From positions 520,371 to 584,370 of the forward strand of contig JBDHZC010000002.1 in the NCBI GenBank assembly GCA_039811685.1: 64,000 nucleotides of DNA, in the 5' to 3' direction. Every line of letters begins with the position of its first letter. Within the stretch, counting starts at the first letter, position 1. The stretch is from Armatimonadota bacterium (GTDB taxonomy: Bacteria; Armatimonadota; UBA5829; DSUL01). The notes under the pieces were generated by a model. The model was not told where the DNA came from, made no database searches, and was given only the letters and a program-made list of their open reading frames with translations. Both the position numbers and the translations under genes were made by a program. This document shows, in pieces, positions 22,698-63,210 of this stretch.

Positions 22698-23644
22698 CCC
22701 CGCGCCCTCTCACCCTCGTAGTACACCCAGCGTTTGCTTGTCCCGAATACTACCAGCGTCAGCGCCAGAATCACCAGAAAAAGAATCCACGCCATCGCGC
22801 AGGCGTAACCCATGCTGAAATACTGAAACGCCTTCTGGTACAGATAGAGCACGTAAAACAGAGTGCTGTAGGCGGGGCTTCCCGCGCCGCCAGTGATGAC
22901 GAAAGCGCTGACAAATACCTGAAAGCTGGCGATGATCCCCATGACGACATTGAAGAAGATAGTGGGGCTGATCATGGGAAGCGTCACGTTAACGAACTTG
23001 CCCCACGCCGCCGCCCCGTCCAGCTCCGCCGCTTCGTAAAGCTGCGTCGGCACACTCTGCAGGCCCGCCAGGTAGATGATCATTCCAGCGCCCGCGCCCC
23101 AGAGACTCATGATCACGAAAGCCGGGATCGCCCACTCCGGACTTGTGAGCCACTGCGGACCGTGAATGCCAAACTTCGCCAGAATCAGATTGATGATGCC
23201 GGAGTCCGGGTTGAAAATCCACTTCCACAGCATAGCCACGGCCACTCCAGGCAGAATGGCAGGCAGATAGAAGATGGCGCGGAAGAATGTGAGCCCCTTG
23301 ACACGCTGATTTAGCAGGACGGCGATAGACAGCGACGTGATCACGCCGATGGGCAGCGACATGGCTGTGTACTTCATCGTAACGCCCAGGGACTTGACGA
23401 AGCGGAAGTCGTGCCCGAACATCTGGCGATAGTTGTCCAGCCCGACAAAGCGCGGCGGATTGAGCATGTCCCAGTCGCACAGGCTCACGTAGAGGGAGAA
23501 CAGCATCGGCCCAAGCGTAAAGACCAGAAAGCCGATAATCCAGGGAGCTATGAAGATATAGCCGTCAATAGCCTCGCGCCGGGAGAGCGACCACTTGCGC
23601 CTTCCAGCGGCAGAAGGTGGAGAAGAGCTCACTGAGCCTCGCAC
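22694..23644 (-). CDS. Carbohydrate ABC transporter permease (MalF/UgpA-type)
   Basis: Typical MalF-like TM topology and EAA-like loop (YEAAELDGAAAWGKF). Overlaps the downstream permease by 4 nt. Confidence 0.9.
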   Translation of the reverse strand: MRGSVSSSPPSAAGRRKWSLSRREAIDGYIFIAPWIIGFLVFTLGPMLFSLYVSLCDWDMLNPPRFVGLDNYRQMFGHDFRFVKSLGVTMKYTAMSLPIGVITSLSIAVLLNQRVKGLTFFRAIFYLPAILPGVAVAMLWKWIFNPDSGIINLILAKFGIHGPQWLTSPEWAIPAFVIMSLWGAGAGMIIYLAGLQSVPTQLYEAAELDGAAAWGKFVNVTLPMISPTIFFNVVMGIIASFQVFVSAFVITGGAGSPAYSTLFYVLYLYQKAFQYFSMGYACAMAWILFLVILALTLVVFGTSKRWVYYEGERARG

Positions 23645-24480
23645 GCAGTGGCGGGAGCAGACGAAAAACTCATGCGCCGCGCTCCCCAGTAGCGATCCAG
23701 AAACTCCCCTTCAAAGAGCTTCGAGATGATAACGCCCCAGCTTCCGCCGTTGGAGTGAATGAACTCACCATTTCCGATGTACATCCCGACATGCGTTATG
23801 CGCTCTTTCACCGTGTCACCCAATCGCGCGAAGAAGACCAGATCTCCCTCGCGAAGCTGCTCCGGCTCTAGGGGTTGGGCTCGTTCGTCCTGCGCCTGAA
23901 TCCCCGCGTCCCGCAGAAGCTGGCAGCCGCACATCCGGTGGCACATCTGCACAAAGCCGCTGCAGTCTATGCCAAACGGTGTCGTGCCGCCCCATAGATA
24001 TGGCGTGCCAATGAACTTTTTCGCATGGTTTACGAGCACATCTCCTCGCGGTTTGCACGGCAGCGGCGTAGAGTCCTGCCGCAGATCTACATCTTTTGCG
24101 CGTACCCATCCACTTTGTCCGTCAGGGAGCTTCAGCTCCACCAGATCGGAAGTGACCTCGCCCGTCTCCACCTCTGTTGTCACCACCAGCTTGGTAAGAA
24201 TAGGGGCAAAAGCTTTCGGCTCGGCGCGAACGTCCACAATCAACGGCTTCACACGCGCGTAGGCTGAGCGGGGATAGCCCTCGCGCTCCAGAGGACGGAC
24301 AAAGTGGCTGCGCAGCCAGCCTGTATAGCTGTCCCAGAGGCGCACATGCGACCACTCACCCTGTTCTTCGAGCAGCCAGGCCGGCTGACCCATGATCGCC
24401 TGCGTAACAAGCTCCGTTTCTCCAGAGGGTTCAAGGTGAACGTTGACGACGTTCTTGGCGATAACCAGCGGCTGATTCAT
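23629..24480 (-). CDS. NlpC/P60 (C40) family peptidase with N-terminal SH3b-like domains (gamma-D-glutamyl-L-diamino acid endopeptidase-like)
   Basis: Catalytic Cys motif GTPYLWGGTTPFGIDCSGFVQ, His in HVGMYIGNGEFIHS. N-terminal W/G-rich SH3b repeats (GWLRSHFV, GWVRAKDV). Confidence 0.85.
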   Translation of the reverse strand: MNQPLVIAKNVVNVHLEPSGETELVTQAIMGQPAWLLEEQGEWSHVRLWDSYTGWLRSHFVRPLEREGYPRSAYARVKPLIVDVRAEPKAFAPILTKLVVTTEVETGEVTSDLVELKLPDGQSGWVRAKDVDLRQDSTPLPCKPRGDVLVNHAKKFIGTPYLWGGTTPFGIDCSGFVQMCHRMCGCQLLRDAGIQAQDERAQPLEPEQLREGDLVFFARLGDTVKERITHVGMYIGNGEFIHSNGGSWGVIISKLFEGEFLDRYWGARRMSFSSAPATACEAQ

Positions 24481-24495
24481 AGGCGCAGTCAGACC

Positions 24496-25275
24496 TCAGT
24501 ATCCTGGCGGGGCGTCTGGCCGGCACCAGTAAGCGCTGAACAGCCAGGTCTCGGTGGTGGGAGCGTCTTTGGGATAGCGTATCTCCTGAAAAGTGAGGTT
24601 GCGAGCGTGCCCGTCGAAGAAACCGATATTCCACGATGCGTCCGGGAAGCGCCGCGTGTGCCACTGAGAGTTCCATGCCTTCTCACTGTCCGGGCCGTTA
24701 CTGGACGTCTGCCACACATCAAACACCACCATCGCCTTGGTGAGATCGCGCGCCTGATCCATCTTGCACGGCTTGAGAACGCCACGGGGATAATACGTGT
24801 TGCTGTAGTTGGTCACATAGCTGGAGCCGTACGCCTTGTAGCAGTTCTTGACTTTGCTGCCTGCGGCGCCGTTCGGGCCACCTGTGCGCCAGGTCATCCC
24901 CTTGTCAGACGGACAGCGCCACAATTCAGCGCTCTTGGTGTAGTCCTTCAACAGCACCCAGATGTAGCGGCCCGGATTGATGCCAGGCTCCCCCTGGTGT
25001 CCGTTGACATCTTCGAAATCACAGCACGATGGCCAGAACCCGTTGTAGTCGTTGGCGTACTGCATGACTGCCCGCGTAATCTGACCCACGTTACTCAGGC
25101 AGGCGACTGTGCGGCTTCGCTCCCGGGCCTGCGCAAAAACGGGAAAGAGGATAGCCGCCAGAATAGCGATGATGGCAATCACGACCAGAAGCTCAATGAG
25201 CGTAAAGCCGCGCAGGCCAGAGCGCCTTTTCACGACGGACTTTTCAGTGTTGATTTTGGATTCACGGAGCGACAT
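24496..25275 (-). CDS. Prepilin-type N-terminal cleavage/methylation domain protein, DUF1559 (H-x9-DG) pseudopilin-like family
   Basis: [25 protein letters not shown] class-III signal, then a DUF1559-like body with C-terminal FFDGHARNL. Start chosen at ATG 25275 (23-aa leader). An alternative upstream ATG at 25341 has a GGAGG RBS supplied by the tandem repeat. Confidence 0.8.
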   Translation of the reverse strand: MSLRESKINTEKSVVKRRSGLRGFTLIELLVVIAIIAILAAILFPVFAQARERSRTVACLSNVGQITRAVMQYANDYNGFWPSCCDFEDVNGHQGEPGINPGRYIWVLLKDYTKSAELWRCPSDKGMTWRTGGPNGAAGSKVKNCYKAYGSSYVTNYSNTYYPRGVLKPCKMDQARDLTKAMVVFDVWQTSSNGPDSEKAWNSQWHTRRFPDASWNIGFFDGHARNLTFQEIRYPKDAPTTETWLFSAYWCRPDAPPGY

Positions 25276-25343
25276 GTCAGTAGAAGCCTCCCAGTTGGAC
25301 TCCGGCGTCTGAGGCACGGTGAGGCGAACGGCGTGATTCATTC

Positions 25344-25438
25344 TGCCTCCGGCAGTTTGCCTCCGGCAGTTTGCCTCCGGCAGTTTGCCTGAGGCAGTTT
25401 GCCTAGGCAGAATGCCTAAGCAGTTGCCTGCAGCCATT
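25344..25438 (-). repeat. 14-bp tandem repeat (3 perfect plus 4 degenerate units) in the 5' leader of the pseudopilin gene. Each unit carries a GGAGG Shine-Dalgarno-like core on the coding strand.
   Basis: Plus strand: tgcctccggcagtt x3 (25344-25385), then tgcctgaggcagtt, tgcctaggcagaa, tgcctaagcagtt, gcctgcagccatt. On the minus strand the unit reads aactgccGGAGGca. Unit length is not a multiple of 3. Confidence 0.8.
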
Positions 25439-25749
25439 GGCCTACCGCAATAATATCATCCACAACACAACCTGAGCAAGCATTTTGCGGAAACGATTAC
25501 ATCTACCTGCTGGATAAGGTATTTTACTCGAACCGGAGCAGGCCTGGCTGCCGCCTGTAGCCTCCAGCGCTGTTCATGGCGTCAAGACTACAAAAGCACG
25601 ACGTATAGAGTGACAAAACAGGGCGCGGCGCTGGCGTCCGGAGGCAAGAGGTGACCGCAGACCCAAACGGGAGATTGCAGAGCTGAGAAGTGGCGGATGG
25701 GCTTCCGCGTCATCTCTGTCCCAACCTTTTCGACCGCGATAGTCCACTT

Positions 25750-25780
25750 TTGGCATCAGTTCGCGGCCTTTGGCTATACT
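25750..25780 (+). promoter_or_regulatory. Candidate sigma70-like promoter (TTGGCA-19 nt-TATACT) 13 nt upstream of the M14 peptidase ATG
   Basis: Hexamers read directly. The 19-nt spacing is longer than optimal, so confidence is low. Confidence 0.3.
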
Positions 25781-25792
25781 TTCTGATAGAAG

Positions 25793-26596
25793 ATGGAGAA
25801 ACAGCGCTCATACGAGAAGCTCATTGAACGCTACGCAGAAACCGCGAGAACTGCTGGCGCACAGATAACAGATATCGGAAAAATCCAGTCGGATATCGGT
25901 GAGTACACCCTCTACAGAATGCATCTGCGCTGCGGGGAGGGCAAGCAGCGGCTGTGTATATCCACAGGAATGCATGGAGATGAACCGGCCGGGCCGGAAA
26001 GCCTGCTGAAGATCATCGCCAGGCTGGGTGAGCTGCGGGATAGCCTCAACGCCGACTTTCTATTCTTTCCCTGCGACAACCCCAGTGGGTACGAGCTCAA
26101 CACCCGGGAGAACTGGCAGGGGCTGGACCTCAACCGCGAATTCGTCCAGGAGAAGCAGGCTGCGGAGATAGCTATCGTCGAAAACGATCTGCGCGGGCGG
26201 GCGTTCGACTTCACGCTGGACCTGCACGAGGACGTGGACACGTACGGGATGTATCTCTACGAACGGGCGCGCAAAGGGTACAGATCTGTCGCTGATTCGA
26301 TGATCGCCGAGTTACGCGCCAGAGACTATCCCATTCACGAGGCGGACTGGATTGAGGGATTGCCAGCTTCAGGGGGCATCATCTGGCCAAGCGGCCGCCT
26401 GCGCAAGTGCGCGCTGCCAAAAGCCGTGTTTCTCTGGCAGAACGGAAGCCCTCACCTCGTCACCACGGAAAGCCCGGGCAAGCTGGAGCTGTCCACGCGC
26501 GTCGAAATGCAGATGATCTGCTTTGACGTGGTGTTGAAGCGTCTGCTGGCGGAGGAGTTCGCGGCCGCTCCGGTTCCCAGCGCAGCAGATCGCTGA
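25793..26596 (+). CDS. M14-like zinc carboxypeptidase / succinylglutamate desuccinylase-aspartoacylase superfamily protein
   Basis: Zinc-binding motifs HGDEPAG and DLHE, and NPSGY. Confidence 0.75.
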   Translation: MEKQRSYEKLIERYAETARTAGAQITDIGKIQSDIGEYTLYRMHLRCGEGKQRLCISTGMHGDEPAGPESLLKIIARLGELRDSLNADFLFFPCDNPSGYELNTRENWQGLDLNREFVQEKQAAEIAIVENDLRGRAFDFTLDLHEDVDTYGMYLYERARKGYRSVADSMIAELRARDYPIHEADWIEGLPASGGIIWPSGRLRKCALPKAVFLWQNGSPHLVTTESPGKLELSTRVEMQMICFDVVLKRLLAEEFAAAPVPSAADR

Positions 26597-41497: not shown

Positions 41498-42072
41498 TGT
41501 TATAGCTCTATTTGTGAAAAACTTCTCAGATTTTTCCTTGCCTCATTTTTCATCCAGCCGATGGTTGCCAGCCGCACAACCAGAACGGCCGTGGACAACG
41601 CGAGGGAGCGGCAGGATTGACGCAGGTCTCTCCGAGCGCGTAAACTCAATCTTGGACAGTGTGCGGGCGTCCGGAAGCGCGTTACGAAAAATTTCTGATT
41701 TTTTCTGCGCAGCCCCTAAAGAGCGCGCTTCTATACGCCAACAATAAGAATACAAGCAGTTATAAGCGCCTTGACGAGAAGCTCAAGACTCAACCTGAGA
41801 GAGTTTCACAGACAGGCTAACATAGAGTTACTAGAGATCTGATAAGGGCAAACTCTTCGAAAGAAGGGGACGCAAAGCCAAGGGTCTACCCCGCTCCGCC
41901 AGAGACCGTCTGGAGAATTGGAGATGGCAGGACAGCCTGGCTGCCGAGTTCCCGGCCTTGTACTTCTGGATCGCCGCAGGCGCTCCGAAGTCGCATGCGA
42001 AGAGCTTGCCTTTTCGCGTTTGTGGTGGCCGGGAGACTCCAGAGGTTCAGATGGAAGAGGGAGTATCCAGTC

Positions 42073-42369
42073 ATGAAGATCACTGAAATGGAATCGGGAA
42101 AAGCCGGCGGACCACAGCAGGACCCAGCCAGCAGCATTCTGCCGGAGGAGTTTCGCGCCAACCTCCATCAGCCCAAAGCTCGCAGGGCGAAGACATCGCG
42201 GGAAGAGGCGATTGAAGTGGCGATGAAGGCGATGGAAGAGGTTCCGGACGTTCGCGAAGACGTTGTCGCCGATCTGAAGGCCAGAATTGAAAGCGGGCAG
42301 TACAAGGTGGCCGGTGAAGACGTTGCGGACATGATGATCCGGCGGATGAAAGCAGACCGCATCCGCTGA
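42073..42369 (+). CDS. FlgM-family anti-sigma-28 factor-like protein
   Basis: C-terminal DVREDVVADLKARIESGQYKVAGEDVADMMI matches the FlgM signature (V..LK.aI..G.YkVd.e.iAdkml). ATG at 42073 (the ORF track starts at 41995). Confidence 0.6.
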   Translation: MKITEMESGKAGGPQQDPASSILPEEFRANLHQPKARRAKTSREEAIEVAMKAMEEVPDVREDVVADLKARIESGQYKVAGEDVADMMIRRMKADRIR

Positions 42370-46313: not shown

Positions 46314-47150
46314 CTAGTAAGGGTATTCCGGGCGGATATAGTAGTCGTTAAGAAGCCACTTATTGTACGGGTTGTCGTTCGGGTGGTAGAGCTTGTCTTT
46401 GGTGACGACCTCAGTGTGGCCGTCAGACATCACGGTGTTCCAGGCGAAGATCGGGTACTTCATATTGTGCCACTGTGCCTGCCACGCACTCTCTCCAGGA
46501 GGGCTGGACTCACTGAACTGAAGCGCATCGTAAAACACAATCGCGCGCGATGGAAACGGAATCTGCTGAAGCTTGACAGGGCGGATGGAGCCCGCGGGCG
46601 GGCCACCTCCGTAGAGCTGATCCCAGTTCTTGATGACCAGGCTGGTGCGAAAAGCATAGCTACAGCCAACCTGACGATACGCGTTCTTGATTACCGGCGG
46701 CCATCCGGTCTGGCCCGTGTCCGGCCGCAACCACTTATAGCCCTTGTCGGCCGGATCGCGCCATATCTCGTGGCTTTTGCTGTAGGGCATCAGGGCGTCC
46801 CAGACGTACGGGAACTGCGCCATAGCAGCCTTCGGATTGTCGTGCCGGTCTTCAGCGTCACAGGCGCGCGGGACAAATCCCTGGTGATCGTCACAATACT
46901 GAATGAATGCCAGCCCAATCTGATGCAGGTTGCTCAGACAGCCCGCCGCACGGGCGCGGTCTCGCGCGGCAGCAAAGACAGGGAAGAGAATCGCCGCCAA
47001 AATGGCGATGATGGCAATGACCACGAGAAGCTCAATCAGGGTGAAGCCTCTGCGGCCCGCCCGGCGGCGGAGTAAGCAAATACTTCGCGACGCCTCAACA
47101 CCAAATTCCAGGCTTACTGCACACCTTGTCTCAACTCTGTTGCCCACCAT
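46314..47150 (-). CDS. Prepilin-type N-terminal cleavage/methylation domain protein, DUF1559 pseudopilin-like (paralog of 24496-25275)
   Basis: [27 protein letters not shown]; C-terminal ...[12 protein letters not shown] at 47150 (GAGGA RBS) gives a 35-aa leader. The ORF track extends to 47225. Confidence 0.8.
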
Positions 47151-62899: not shown

Positions 62900-63142
62900 A
62901 AGGGCGATCGTACCTGGAACCCTCATTCGTCCGTAACCTCGTGTATGCCACCAGTCTGGAGCCGCGTTATTTACGGCAGCGTTAGCGCGCAAGGCCGAGC
63001 GCTTTGTTGTCTCTGTCGAAAAAGCGTTTCTGAAGCTCCTGTGAGTGCTCTCAGCACTGTCCACAACAGACCTGCGCACGAGACTGAGGTTCCTGGCGAA
63101 AGCATCCGATATTAATTTGATGCTGCCGATCCGGACGCCGCG

Positions 63143-63210
63143 CCGGACTCGGCTAAAGCCGGTCTCGGCCAAAGCCGGTCTCGGCCAAAGCCGGTCTCGG
63201 CTAAGAAGGT
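63143..63210 (+). repeat. 16-bp tandem repeat (about 3.7 units) immediately upstream of the histidine kinase start
   Basis: ggctaaagccggtctc, ggccaaagccggtctc, ggccaaagccggtctc, ggctaagaaggt... The last partial unit supplies the AAGAAGGT RBS for the GTG at 63221. Confidence 0.8.

Follow-up and report, generated by a model that had tools for sequence, protein, structure and literature searches.

A 14-bp tandem array upstream of a prepilin-type gene in an Armatimonadota bacterium, probably a lineage-specific leader minisatellite

The present analysis concerns a stretch of 64,000 nucleotides (nt) from an Armatimonadota bacterium (GenBank assembly GCA_039811685.1, contig JBDHZC010000002.1, positions 520,371 to 584,370), hereafter called the window and numbered from its first base, and more particularly a 14-bp tandem array lying directly upstream of a prepilin-type gene on its minus strand. 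This gene is the first of a run comprising the prepilin, an SH3/NlpC-P60 gene located 15 nt downstream and two ABC permeases; an M14 peptidase gene is divergent from it, and a sulfate adenylyltransferase gene is also found in the neighbourhood. The prepilin matches the profiles PF07963 (33 bits) and TIGR02532 (above cut-off), and its DUF1559 match of 21.9 falls just under the Pfam gathering score of 23.3; its homologs carry PF07596. A preliminary description, made from the DNA alone, had placed the repeat in the leader of a DUF1559 pseudopilin gene: the leader position and the prepilin type were retained, and the family assignment stands just below its threshold. The coordinates of the features are given in Table 1.

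On the coding strand, the array extends from 25437 to 25344 and is made of three perfect and four decayed units. Tandem Repeats Finder (TRF) reported a period of 14 at 25344-25404 (4.4 copies, 95% matches, score 108), with an extended row at 25344-25429 (6.4 copies, 89% matches), and an exact-pattern search with the plus-strand form TGCCTCCGGCAGTT returned three zero-mismatch matches (25344, 25358 and 25372) and one two-mismatch match (25386). The longest run of bases identical to those 14 positions further on is 33, vs. maxima that average 9.7 and do not exceed 14 in 200 shuffles of the window, and the three identical units form a 47-base periodic run. The period-14 repeat is real and far beyond chance. 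The seven copies initially described were confirmed, as was the proximal GGAGG, 4 nt before an in-frame ATG: GAATG, with the ATG at 25341, directly follows the array.

Each perfect unit bears a GGAGG motif and the dyad TGCC-GGA-GGCA. As for the decayed units, the core of u4 (TGCCTCAGGCA) can pair with that of a perfect unit, which bears GGAGG (TGCCGGAGGCA), over 10 of 11 positions and is similar to an anti-Shine-Dalgarno (anti-SD) sequence, while u1, u2 and u3 have retained the AGGCA 3' end. A relic unit, whose chance of occurring in the region was roughly estimated at 0.004, sits between the two candidate start codons and shares base 25292 with the second GGGAGG. An ungapped consensus scan between these two ATGs gave two matches at up to five mismatches vs. 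0.4 expected; further decayed units were rejected there, the relic being the sole solid one.

Table 1. Positions of the features discussed in the text (window coordinates, unless a homologous locus is named).
Feature	Position	Strand	Remarks
Prepilin-type (GFTLIELL) DUF1559-like gene	24496-25341	-	PF07963, TIGR02532
Unit u1, ATGGCTGCAGGCA	25437-25425	-	Decayed unit
Unit u2, ACTGCTTAGGCA	25424-25413	-	Decayed unit
Unit u3, TTCTGCCTAGGCA	25412-25400	-	Decayed unit
Unit u4, AACTGCCTCAGGCA	25399-25386	-	Two mismatches to the unit, GGA to TCA
Units u5, u6 and u7, AACTGCCGGAGGCA	25385-25372, 25371-25358, 25357-25344	-	Three identical 14-nt units; TRF, pattern search
Relic unit, sense GCCGGAGTCCAACTG	25292-25306	-	13/15 positions match the unit, 87% identity to both perfect copies
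10-bp inverted repeat, left arm, sense CATTCTGCCT	25405-25414	-	In u3; arms 100% complementary, 56 nt between them
10-bp inverted repeat, right arm, sense AGGCAGAATG	25339-25348	-	Spans ATG 25341 and the proximal SD (3' part)
Candidate start 1	25339-25350	-	GGAGG (25350-25346), 4-nt spacer, ATG 25341-25339; 281 aa
Candidate start 2	25273-25292	-	GGGAGG (25292-25287), 11-nt spacer, ATG 25275-25273; 259 aa
Putative promoter	25450-25479	-	-35-like TTGCTC (25479-25474), 18-nt spacer, extended -10 TGaTATTAT (25458-25450)
Conserved upstream block, GATGTAATCGTTTCCGCAAAATGCTTG	25477-25503	-	Near-identical over ~26 nt to the ortholog
Prepilin-NlpC/P60 pair	23629-25341; L007 5001-6707; L023 4001-5708; L027 4001-5629	- (window)	
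TATACT of the M14 peptidase gene	25775-25795; L007 4711-4735	+ (window); - (L007)	

The unit did not recur in the 64-kb window beyond expectation, with 10 matches at up to three mismatches vs. 8.3 expected, four of them within the array itself; a search for the 14-mer upstream of other genes, which had been suggested as a check, accordingly gave nothing beyond chance there. Dimer-pattern scans of GTDB species genomes and of Joint Genome Institute (JGI) metagenomes, collections from which the source lineage is absent, returned unrelated sequences only. Among these, two JGI metagenome contigs, L015 (11160-11184) and L017 (1654-1678), carry the tandem dimer CCGGCAAACTGCCG CCGGCAAACTGCCG ending 1-2 nt before an ATG, and small GGCA-AAC-TGCC dyads may be recurrent seeds of tandem duplication beside start codons.

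The closest available relative (P0001, loci L007-L011) has an orthologous prepilin gene, with 92% amino acid and about 77% nucleotide identity and an identical gene order. No tandem repeat is present in its leader of about 82 nt, within a spacer of 289 bp, while the promoter block and the extended -10 are kept. The more distant homologous loci L023, L027 and L028 have no arrays either. The best local alignment between the leader and that of the ortholog (GTCCAA..GGGAG) was reached by 47% of shuffles, and global alignments were unstable. The possibility that the unit is an amplified version of a conserved leader motif was also rejected, the five homologous leaders having no 6- to 8-mers in common; CCGG is mildly enriched in them, without forming a motif. 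Judging from these comparisons, the array is lineage-specific, and its unit is private to one locus in the window and the collections scanned.

Concerning transcription, a putative promoter with an extended -10 was found upstream of the array, and its ortholog counterpart (TTGATT-18 nt-TGgTATCAT) lies in matching register. An in-window paralog and the homologs in L023 and L027 are likewise preceded by the form TGnTAnnAT. A consensus sigma-70 scan missed this promoter because its -35 is weak, and a sigma-54 -24/-12 promoter inside the repeat was rejected by inspection, the GG-to-GC spacing being 8 instead of 12. Transcription would start at about A25443, on the edge of the array away from the gene. 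Because the conserved promoter block with its extended -10 lies upstream, the whole array would belong to the 5' untranslated region (5'-UTR), from about +6, and thus neither to the promoter spacer nor to an open reading frame (ORF).

The block GATGTAAyCGTTTCCGC(A)AAATGCTTG (25477-25503 on the minus strand; L007 4862-4887) is the only alignable stretch of the spacer between the two species, which share about 77% nucleotide identity. A regulator may bind to this 26-nt block, where it would overlap the -35 of the prepilin promoter.

Codon usage marks the array as non-coding whichever of the three frames is read, with log-odds of -0.32, -0.30 and -0.57 vs. +0.40 for genes. The only ATGs in the leader are those at 25437 and 25341, both in frame with the gene, and no separate upstream ORF exists. 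Coding through the array from ATG 25437, which would put 77 more residues on the prepilin leader, was rejected: the log-odds are negative, the codon lies about 6 nt from the predicted transcription start, and it has no SD.

ATG 25341 and ATG 25275 are both in frame with the stop at 24496, and the start codon is truly ambiguous between them, as the preliminary description had it: one public gene call gives 281 aa from ATG 25341 (P0121), while the NCBI protein MCC6484837.1 has 259 aa from ATG 25275. In favour of the first, the segment 25341-25276 has an in-frame codon log-odds of +0.41, which 3.8% of intergenic windows attain, and long leaders are normal, at least 35 aa being obligatory in the ortholog and 35 aa in the paralog. 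The codon test is weak on leaders: the leaders of the paralog and of the ortholog, which are necessarily coding, come out near 0, and some UTRs reach +0.2 to +0.4. In favour of the second, its ribosome-binding site (RBS) is predicted to be more accessible, and the relic repeat unit lies immediately upstream. A third candidate, GTG 25233, would yield the family-typical leader MKRRSGLRG and has no SD. Choosing the start by homology failed, since the leader alignment with the ortholog was non-significant. Whichever of the three starts is used, cleavage by the prepilin peptidase between G and FTLIELL yields one and the same mature pilin, and the ambiguity may therefore be of little consequence for the mature protein.

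The units could be counted in three assemblies, i.e. the window, the metagenome-assembled genome GCA_020846715.1 (L001) and L032 (SRR35018966), and each has u4 followed by three units. Over 20.8 kb, the second has 1 base that is not as in the window, and the third departs from the window at 5 of 1728 positions (0.3%), one of them a C-to-G substitution within its middle unit (25366). The contig of L032 reads through the array because this single-nucleotide polymorphism (SNP) breaks the periodicity. In the Logan contigs L002, L003 and L020/L031, the sequence breaks off after exactly 30 nt of periodic sequence. In Logan assemblies, a k=31 graph stops at k-1 = 30 nt if the periodicity extends over 45 nt or more, and therefore those samples contain at least three units. 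Array length did not vary between the three countable assemblies, which are nearly clonal and make up a shallow, assembly-level sample.

The array is predicted to fold on itself because every unit carries a self-complementary dyad. In addition to the TGCC-N3-GGCA dyad within the units, neighbouring units can pair as GGCA-AAC-TGCC, and about 57% of the array is self-complementary. The fold of the leader has a z-score of -3.0 against dinucleotide shuffles and of -4.3 to -5.5 against mononucleotide shuffles, vs. -0.7 to +1.2 for the leaders of four homologs and of the paralog. The predicted minimum free energy (MFE) structure is a single 76-nt hairpin (25414-25339), in which u4 pairs with u6 and u3 with u7; by mutation, the loop of u4 now reads CCUCA, which resembles an anti-SD. 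At its base, the hairpin is closed by a 10-bp helix without mismatch (CAUUCUGCCU/AGGCAGAAUG), four pairs of which lie outside the unit consensus. A scan of 25100-25900 with Rfam covariance models at a permissive threshold gave only sub-threshold chance matches (mir-2568, 21 bits vs. a cut-off of 90; P17, 11 vs. 45).

Opening energies were predicted for leaders with 0 to 7 perfect units. They range from 12.4 to 14.9 kcal/mol for the proximal SD and AUG 25341, and remain constant at 7.7 kcal/mol for the second SD and AUG 25275; the value for GUG 25233 is about 4.8 kcal/mol. RBS accessibility showed no dependence on repeat number in silico over this range. In this model, the array would occlude the first start, and its copy number would tune nothing.

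The reading that we favour, with a probability of about 0.6, is that of a lineage-specific 5'-UTR minisatellite, generated by slippage at a small dyad and having at most a structural, RBS-occluding effect. The array has the structural features of a bacterial minisatellite (units longer than 9 nt, non-coding and lineage-specific, seven units with a decay gradient, and a relic), and lacks the position and, among the three countable assemblies, the variability of a contingency locus. At the outset, a short segment with dyad symmetry (TGCC-N3-GGCA with an A-rich spacer) would have been duplicated by strand slippage; the older copies would then have decayed on the promoter side, one relic being left on the gene side, and the three central copies would have been amplified recently. 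Once transcribed, the array would fold back into the 76-nt hairpin, whose 10-bp base would bury the proximal GGAGG and AUG 25341, and translation would rely either on the more accessible GGGAGG/AUG 25275 or on opening of the hairpin.

Loci with a variable number of tandem repeats (VNTR), or minisatellites, as used in multiple-locus VNTR analysis (MLVA typing), by definition vary in copy number between strains. The array resembles them in its unit of roughly 10-20 nt, its few copies, its decay gradient, its lineage specificity, its intergenic position and its plausible origin by replication slippage, whereas it shows no variation among the near-clonal assemblies.

A second non-chance array is present in the window, at 63142-63205 on the plus strand, with four 16-nt units GCCGGTCTCGGCCAAA, a TRF score of 106 and a 31-base period-16 identity run. 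It ends with AAGAAGG, 11 nt before the GTG (63221) of a HisKA histidine kinase gene, and has a 4-bp dyad GCCG/CGGC with an A-rich spacer, one long predicted hairpin and no GGA. In a search for an ortholog of this kinase, the best match is only 49% identical and allowed no comparison. These two are the only non-chance tandem arrays of the 64 kb, and both lie in 5' leaders; arrays of like build fit a bias towards hairpin-promoted slippage.

Several points weigh against a minisatellite with at most a structural effect. The four extra base pairs of the helix covering the SD and AUG could reflect selection for RBS occlusion, i.e. a function, and the fact that both non-chance arrays abut an SD could point to something more systematic than mutation bias. 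Also, thermodynamic folding, on which the predicted occlusion is based, ignores co-transcriptional folding, ribosomes and proteins, and the putative transcription start is placed by the conserved -10 alone. As for the copy number, it was counted in assemblies, not in reads, so that low-frequency length variants could be present within populations, and the countable assemblies, being nearly clonal, may not be independent.

Among the alternatives, the least improbable one, although it is unlikely, supposes that the units are reiterated RNA sites: GGAGG or GGA motifs carried by UGCC-GGA-GGCA hairpins would recruit either the 30S subunit, as a standby site or as a stabiliser similar to STAB-SD, or a CsrA-type protein, and would thereby regulate the prepilin mRNA, either its translation or its stability. 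STAB-SD, which stabilises the 5' end of cry3A in Bacillus thuringiensis, consists of a single element and is found in Firmicutes, and CsrA-FliW systems are common in flagellated lineages. The source organism appears to be flagellated, with an FlgM gene behind a cyclic di-GMP (c-di-GMP) riboswitch (see below). With CsrA/RsmA leaders, sponge RNAs and STAB-SD, the array shares GGA or GGAGG motifs reiterated in a 5' leader, here a predicted 5'-UTR, some of them on hairpin loops: each perfect unit has a GGA in the loop of its 4-bp dyad, that of the last unit overlapping the SD which precedes ATG 25341. If 25275 is the start, these GGAGG motifs stand away from it. Direct repeats located near start codons in Beggiatoaceae have likewise been proposed as S1, Csp or Csr sites (PMC4679880). 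However, the four older units have neither GGA nor GGAGG, what the array conserves being AGGCA, and the loops are triloops with no A-N-GGA context. In the MFE fold, moreover, most GGAGG copies are paired with other units. The ortholog leader has no array, which argues against a conserved regulatory role, and the leaders of the homologs share no motif. The second array of the window has no GGA. No CsrA-like ORF was detected in the 64-kb window by tblastn, which says little on the whole genome.

The preliminary description had seen in the array the classic organisation of phase-variable repeats. Under this hypothesis, frequent slippage would switch or tune pilin expression in the manner of hmw1A, which we regard as quite improbable. 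A tandem of identical units immediately before a gene of surface or pilin type would suit it, as would an array that is probably transcribed and predicted to form a hairpin like the hmw repeat, and the SNP that one strain has in its middle unit indicates that the tract is evolving. Nevertheless, the array is not an on/off phase-variation switch, because it lies outside the ORF and the -35/-10 promoter spacer and because a change by whole units leaves the junction between SD and start codon intact. This junction, GGAGGCAGAATG, is outside the periodic part, and slippage would therefore not alter the SD-to-start spacing as initially put forward; a shift of an upstream reading frame is conceivable for the ORF from ATG 25437 only, i.e. 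through a non-coding array and from an ATG lacking an SD. The polymorphism in copy number that had been proposed as a check was not observed, the count being three in all three assemblies, including the 0.3%-diverged strain, and the predicted opening energy of the RBS is flat from 0 to 7 units. With its three identical copies, the tract is also short beside known transcribed repeat switches, e.g. the 11 or more units of hmw. As a whole, the observations of the preliminary description hold, together with its repeat, leader and ambiguous start, and phase variation is not supported.

The hmw1A leader repeat may be the closest functional analogue of the array, and the TAACTGA repeats of Beggiatoaceae the closest descriptive one. 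In Haemophilus influenzae, the 7-bp repeat (ATCTTTC)n of hmw1A/hmw2A is transcribed as part of a 5'-UTR hairpin, the cleavage of which by RNase III raises expression; at least 11 repeats are needed in nature, and length polymorphism is documented (PMC12721329). Both repeats are located between the promoter and the start codon, probably within the 5'-UTR in the present case, both contribute an arm to a long hairpin, a predicted one for the array, and both precede a surface- or adhesion-type gene. However, the array has a unit of 14 nt instead of 7, only three identical copies and no variation among three assemblies; it is predicted to pair with itself, whereas the hmw repeats pair with a separate G-rich arm and are cut by RNase III, and its repeats bear SD motifs, unlike those of hmw.

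Direct repeats of TAACTGA precede start codons in members of the Beggiatoaceae, Cyanobacteria and Bacteroidetes, a genome having them at about 169 loci (PMC4679880). Like the array, they are short direct repeats, in 2 to 6 copies, ending a few nt from the start codon, and a post-transcriptional role was proposed for them. They nevertheless consist of one heptamer that is dispersed and shared across phyla, whereas the array unit was found at a single locus in the window and the collections scanned. Compared with both systems, the unit is private, long and self-complementary, carries an SD itself and shows no polymorphism among the assemblies.

A broader and similarly improbable proposal takes both arrays of the window as members of a class of expandable, self-complementary leader minisatellites, with SD-like units mutating to anti-SD-like ones. 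Such arrays would gate translation of the prepilin operon, either by an RBS-sequestering hairpin or as a cis decoy for the 30S subunit or a GGA-binding protein, with the number of units acting as a slow rheostat.

It is still less probable that the TGCC-N3-GGCA dyads, spaced 14 bp apart, form an operator array binding a dimeric transcription factor that would repress or shape transcription just past the start site. The well-preserved units all keep the dyad, whether their centre is GGA or TCA, TGCCTAGGCA is a perfect palindrome, and three units span 42 bp, about four helical turns. Yet, with a spacing of 14 bp, neighbouring sites do not face the same side of the helix, none of the adjacent genes codes for a regulator, the unit is not beyond chance elsewhere in the window, and the ortholog keeps the promoter with no TGCC-N3-GGCA site in its leader. 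Finally, a repeat or copy number created by mis-assembly is hardly credible: de Bruijn contigs from several runs do break within the array, but exactly at the k-1 = 30 nt that a k=31 graph should give, the array measures less than 100 nt in total and is shorter than a read, and its sequence is identical in two assemblies, a third contig reading through it with three units as well.

Beyond the array, the prepilin gene and its SH3/NlpC-P60 peptidoglycan-hydrolase neighbour form a pair found in four lineages, with prepilins 59-92% identical and differing flanking genes. This pair looks like a conserved two-gene module of unassigned role. A paralogous DUF1559 prepilin gene lies at 46314-47150 on the minus strand (PF07596, 28 bits), without tandem repeat; its extended -10 is TGCTATAAT, and its 35-aa leader is obligatory, there being no in-frame start nearer GFTLIELL. 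Long prepilin leaders thus seem usual in the source organism. As for the M14 peptidase gene, a TATACT hexamer, conserved in the ortholog, ends 12 nt before its ATG, which has no SD, and its mRNA leader may be only about 5 nt long.

A c-di-GMP-I-GGC riboswitch aptamer (RF03167, 67 bits vs. a cut-off of 59) was found at 41838-41949 on the plus strand, with a gene for the anti-sigma-28 factor FlgM (PF04316, E = 5e-13) directly 3' of it, at 41995-42369 on the same strand. This arrangement suggests c-di-GMP control of flagellar gene expression in the source Armatimonadota organism.

If the favoured reading holds, the locus illustrates that a contingency locus of textbook appearance can fail every positional and comparative test, and that phase variation should not be called from sequence alone for repeats located beside surface-protein genes. 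In practical terms, the array would then explain the disagreement of gene callers on the start (259 vs. 281 aa) as well as the k=31 assembly breaks at the locus, and it is a possible strain-typing marker for this uncultured Armatimonadota lineage. If the structural effect is true, the prepilin leader would be a natural 5'-UTR hairpin built wholly by tandem duplication of an SD-bearing dyad, and would represent a simple evolutionary route to RBS occlusion.

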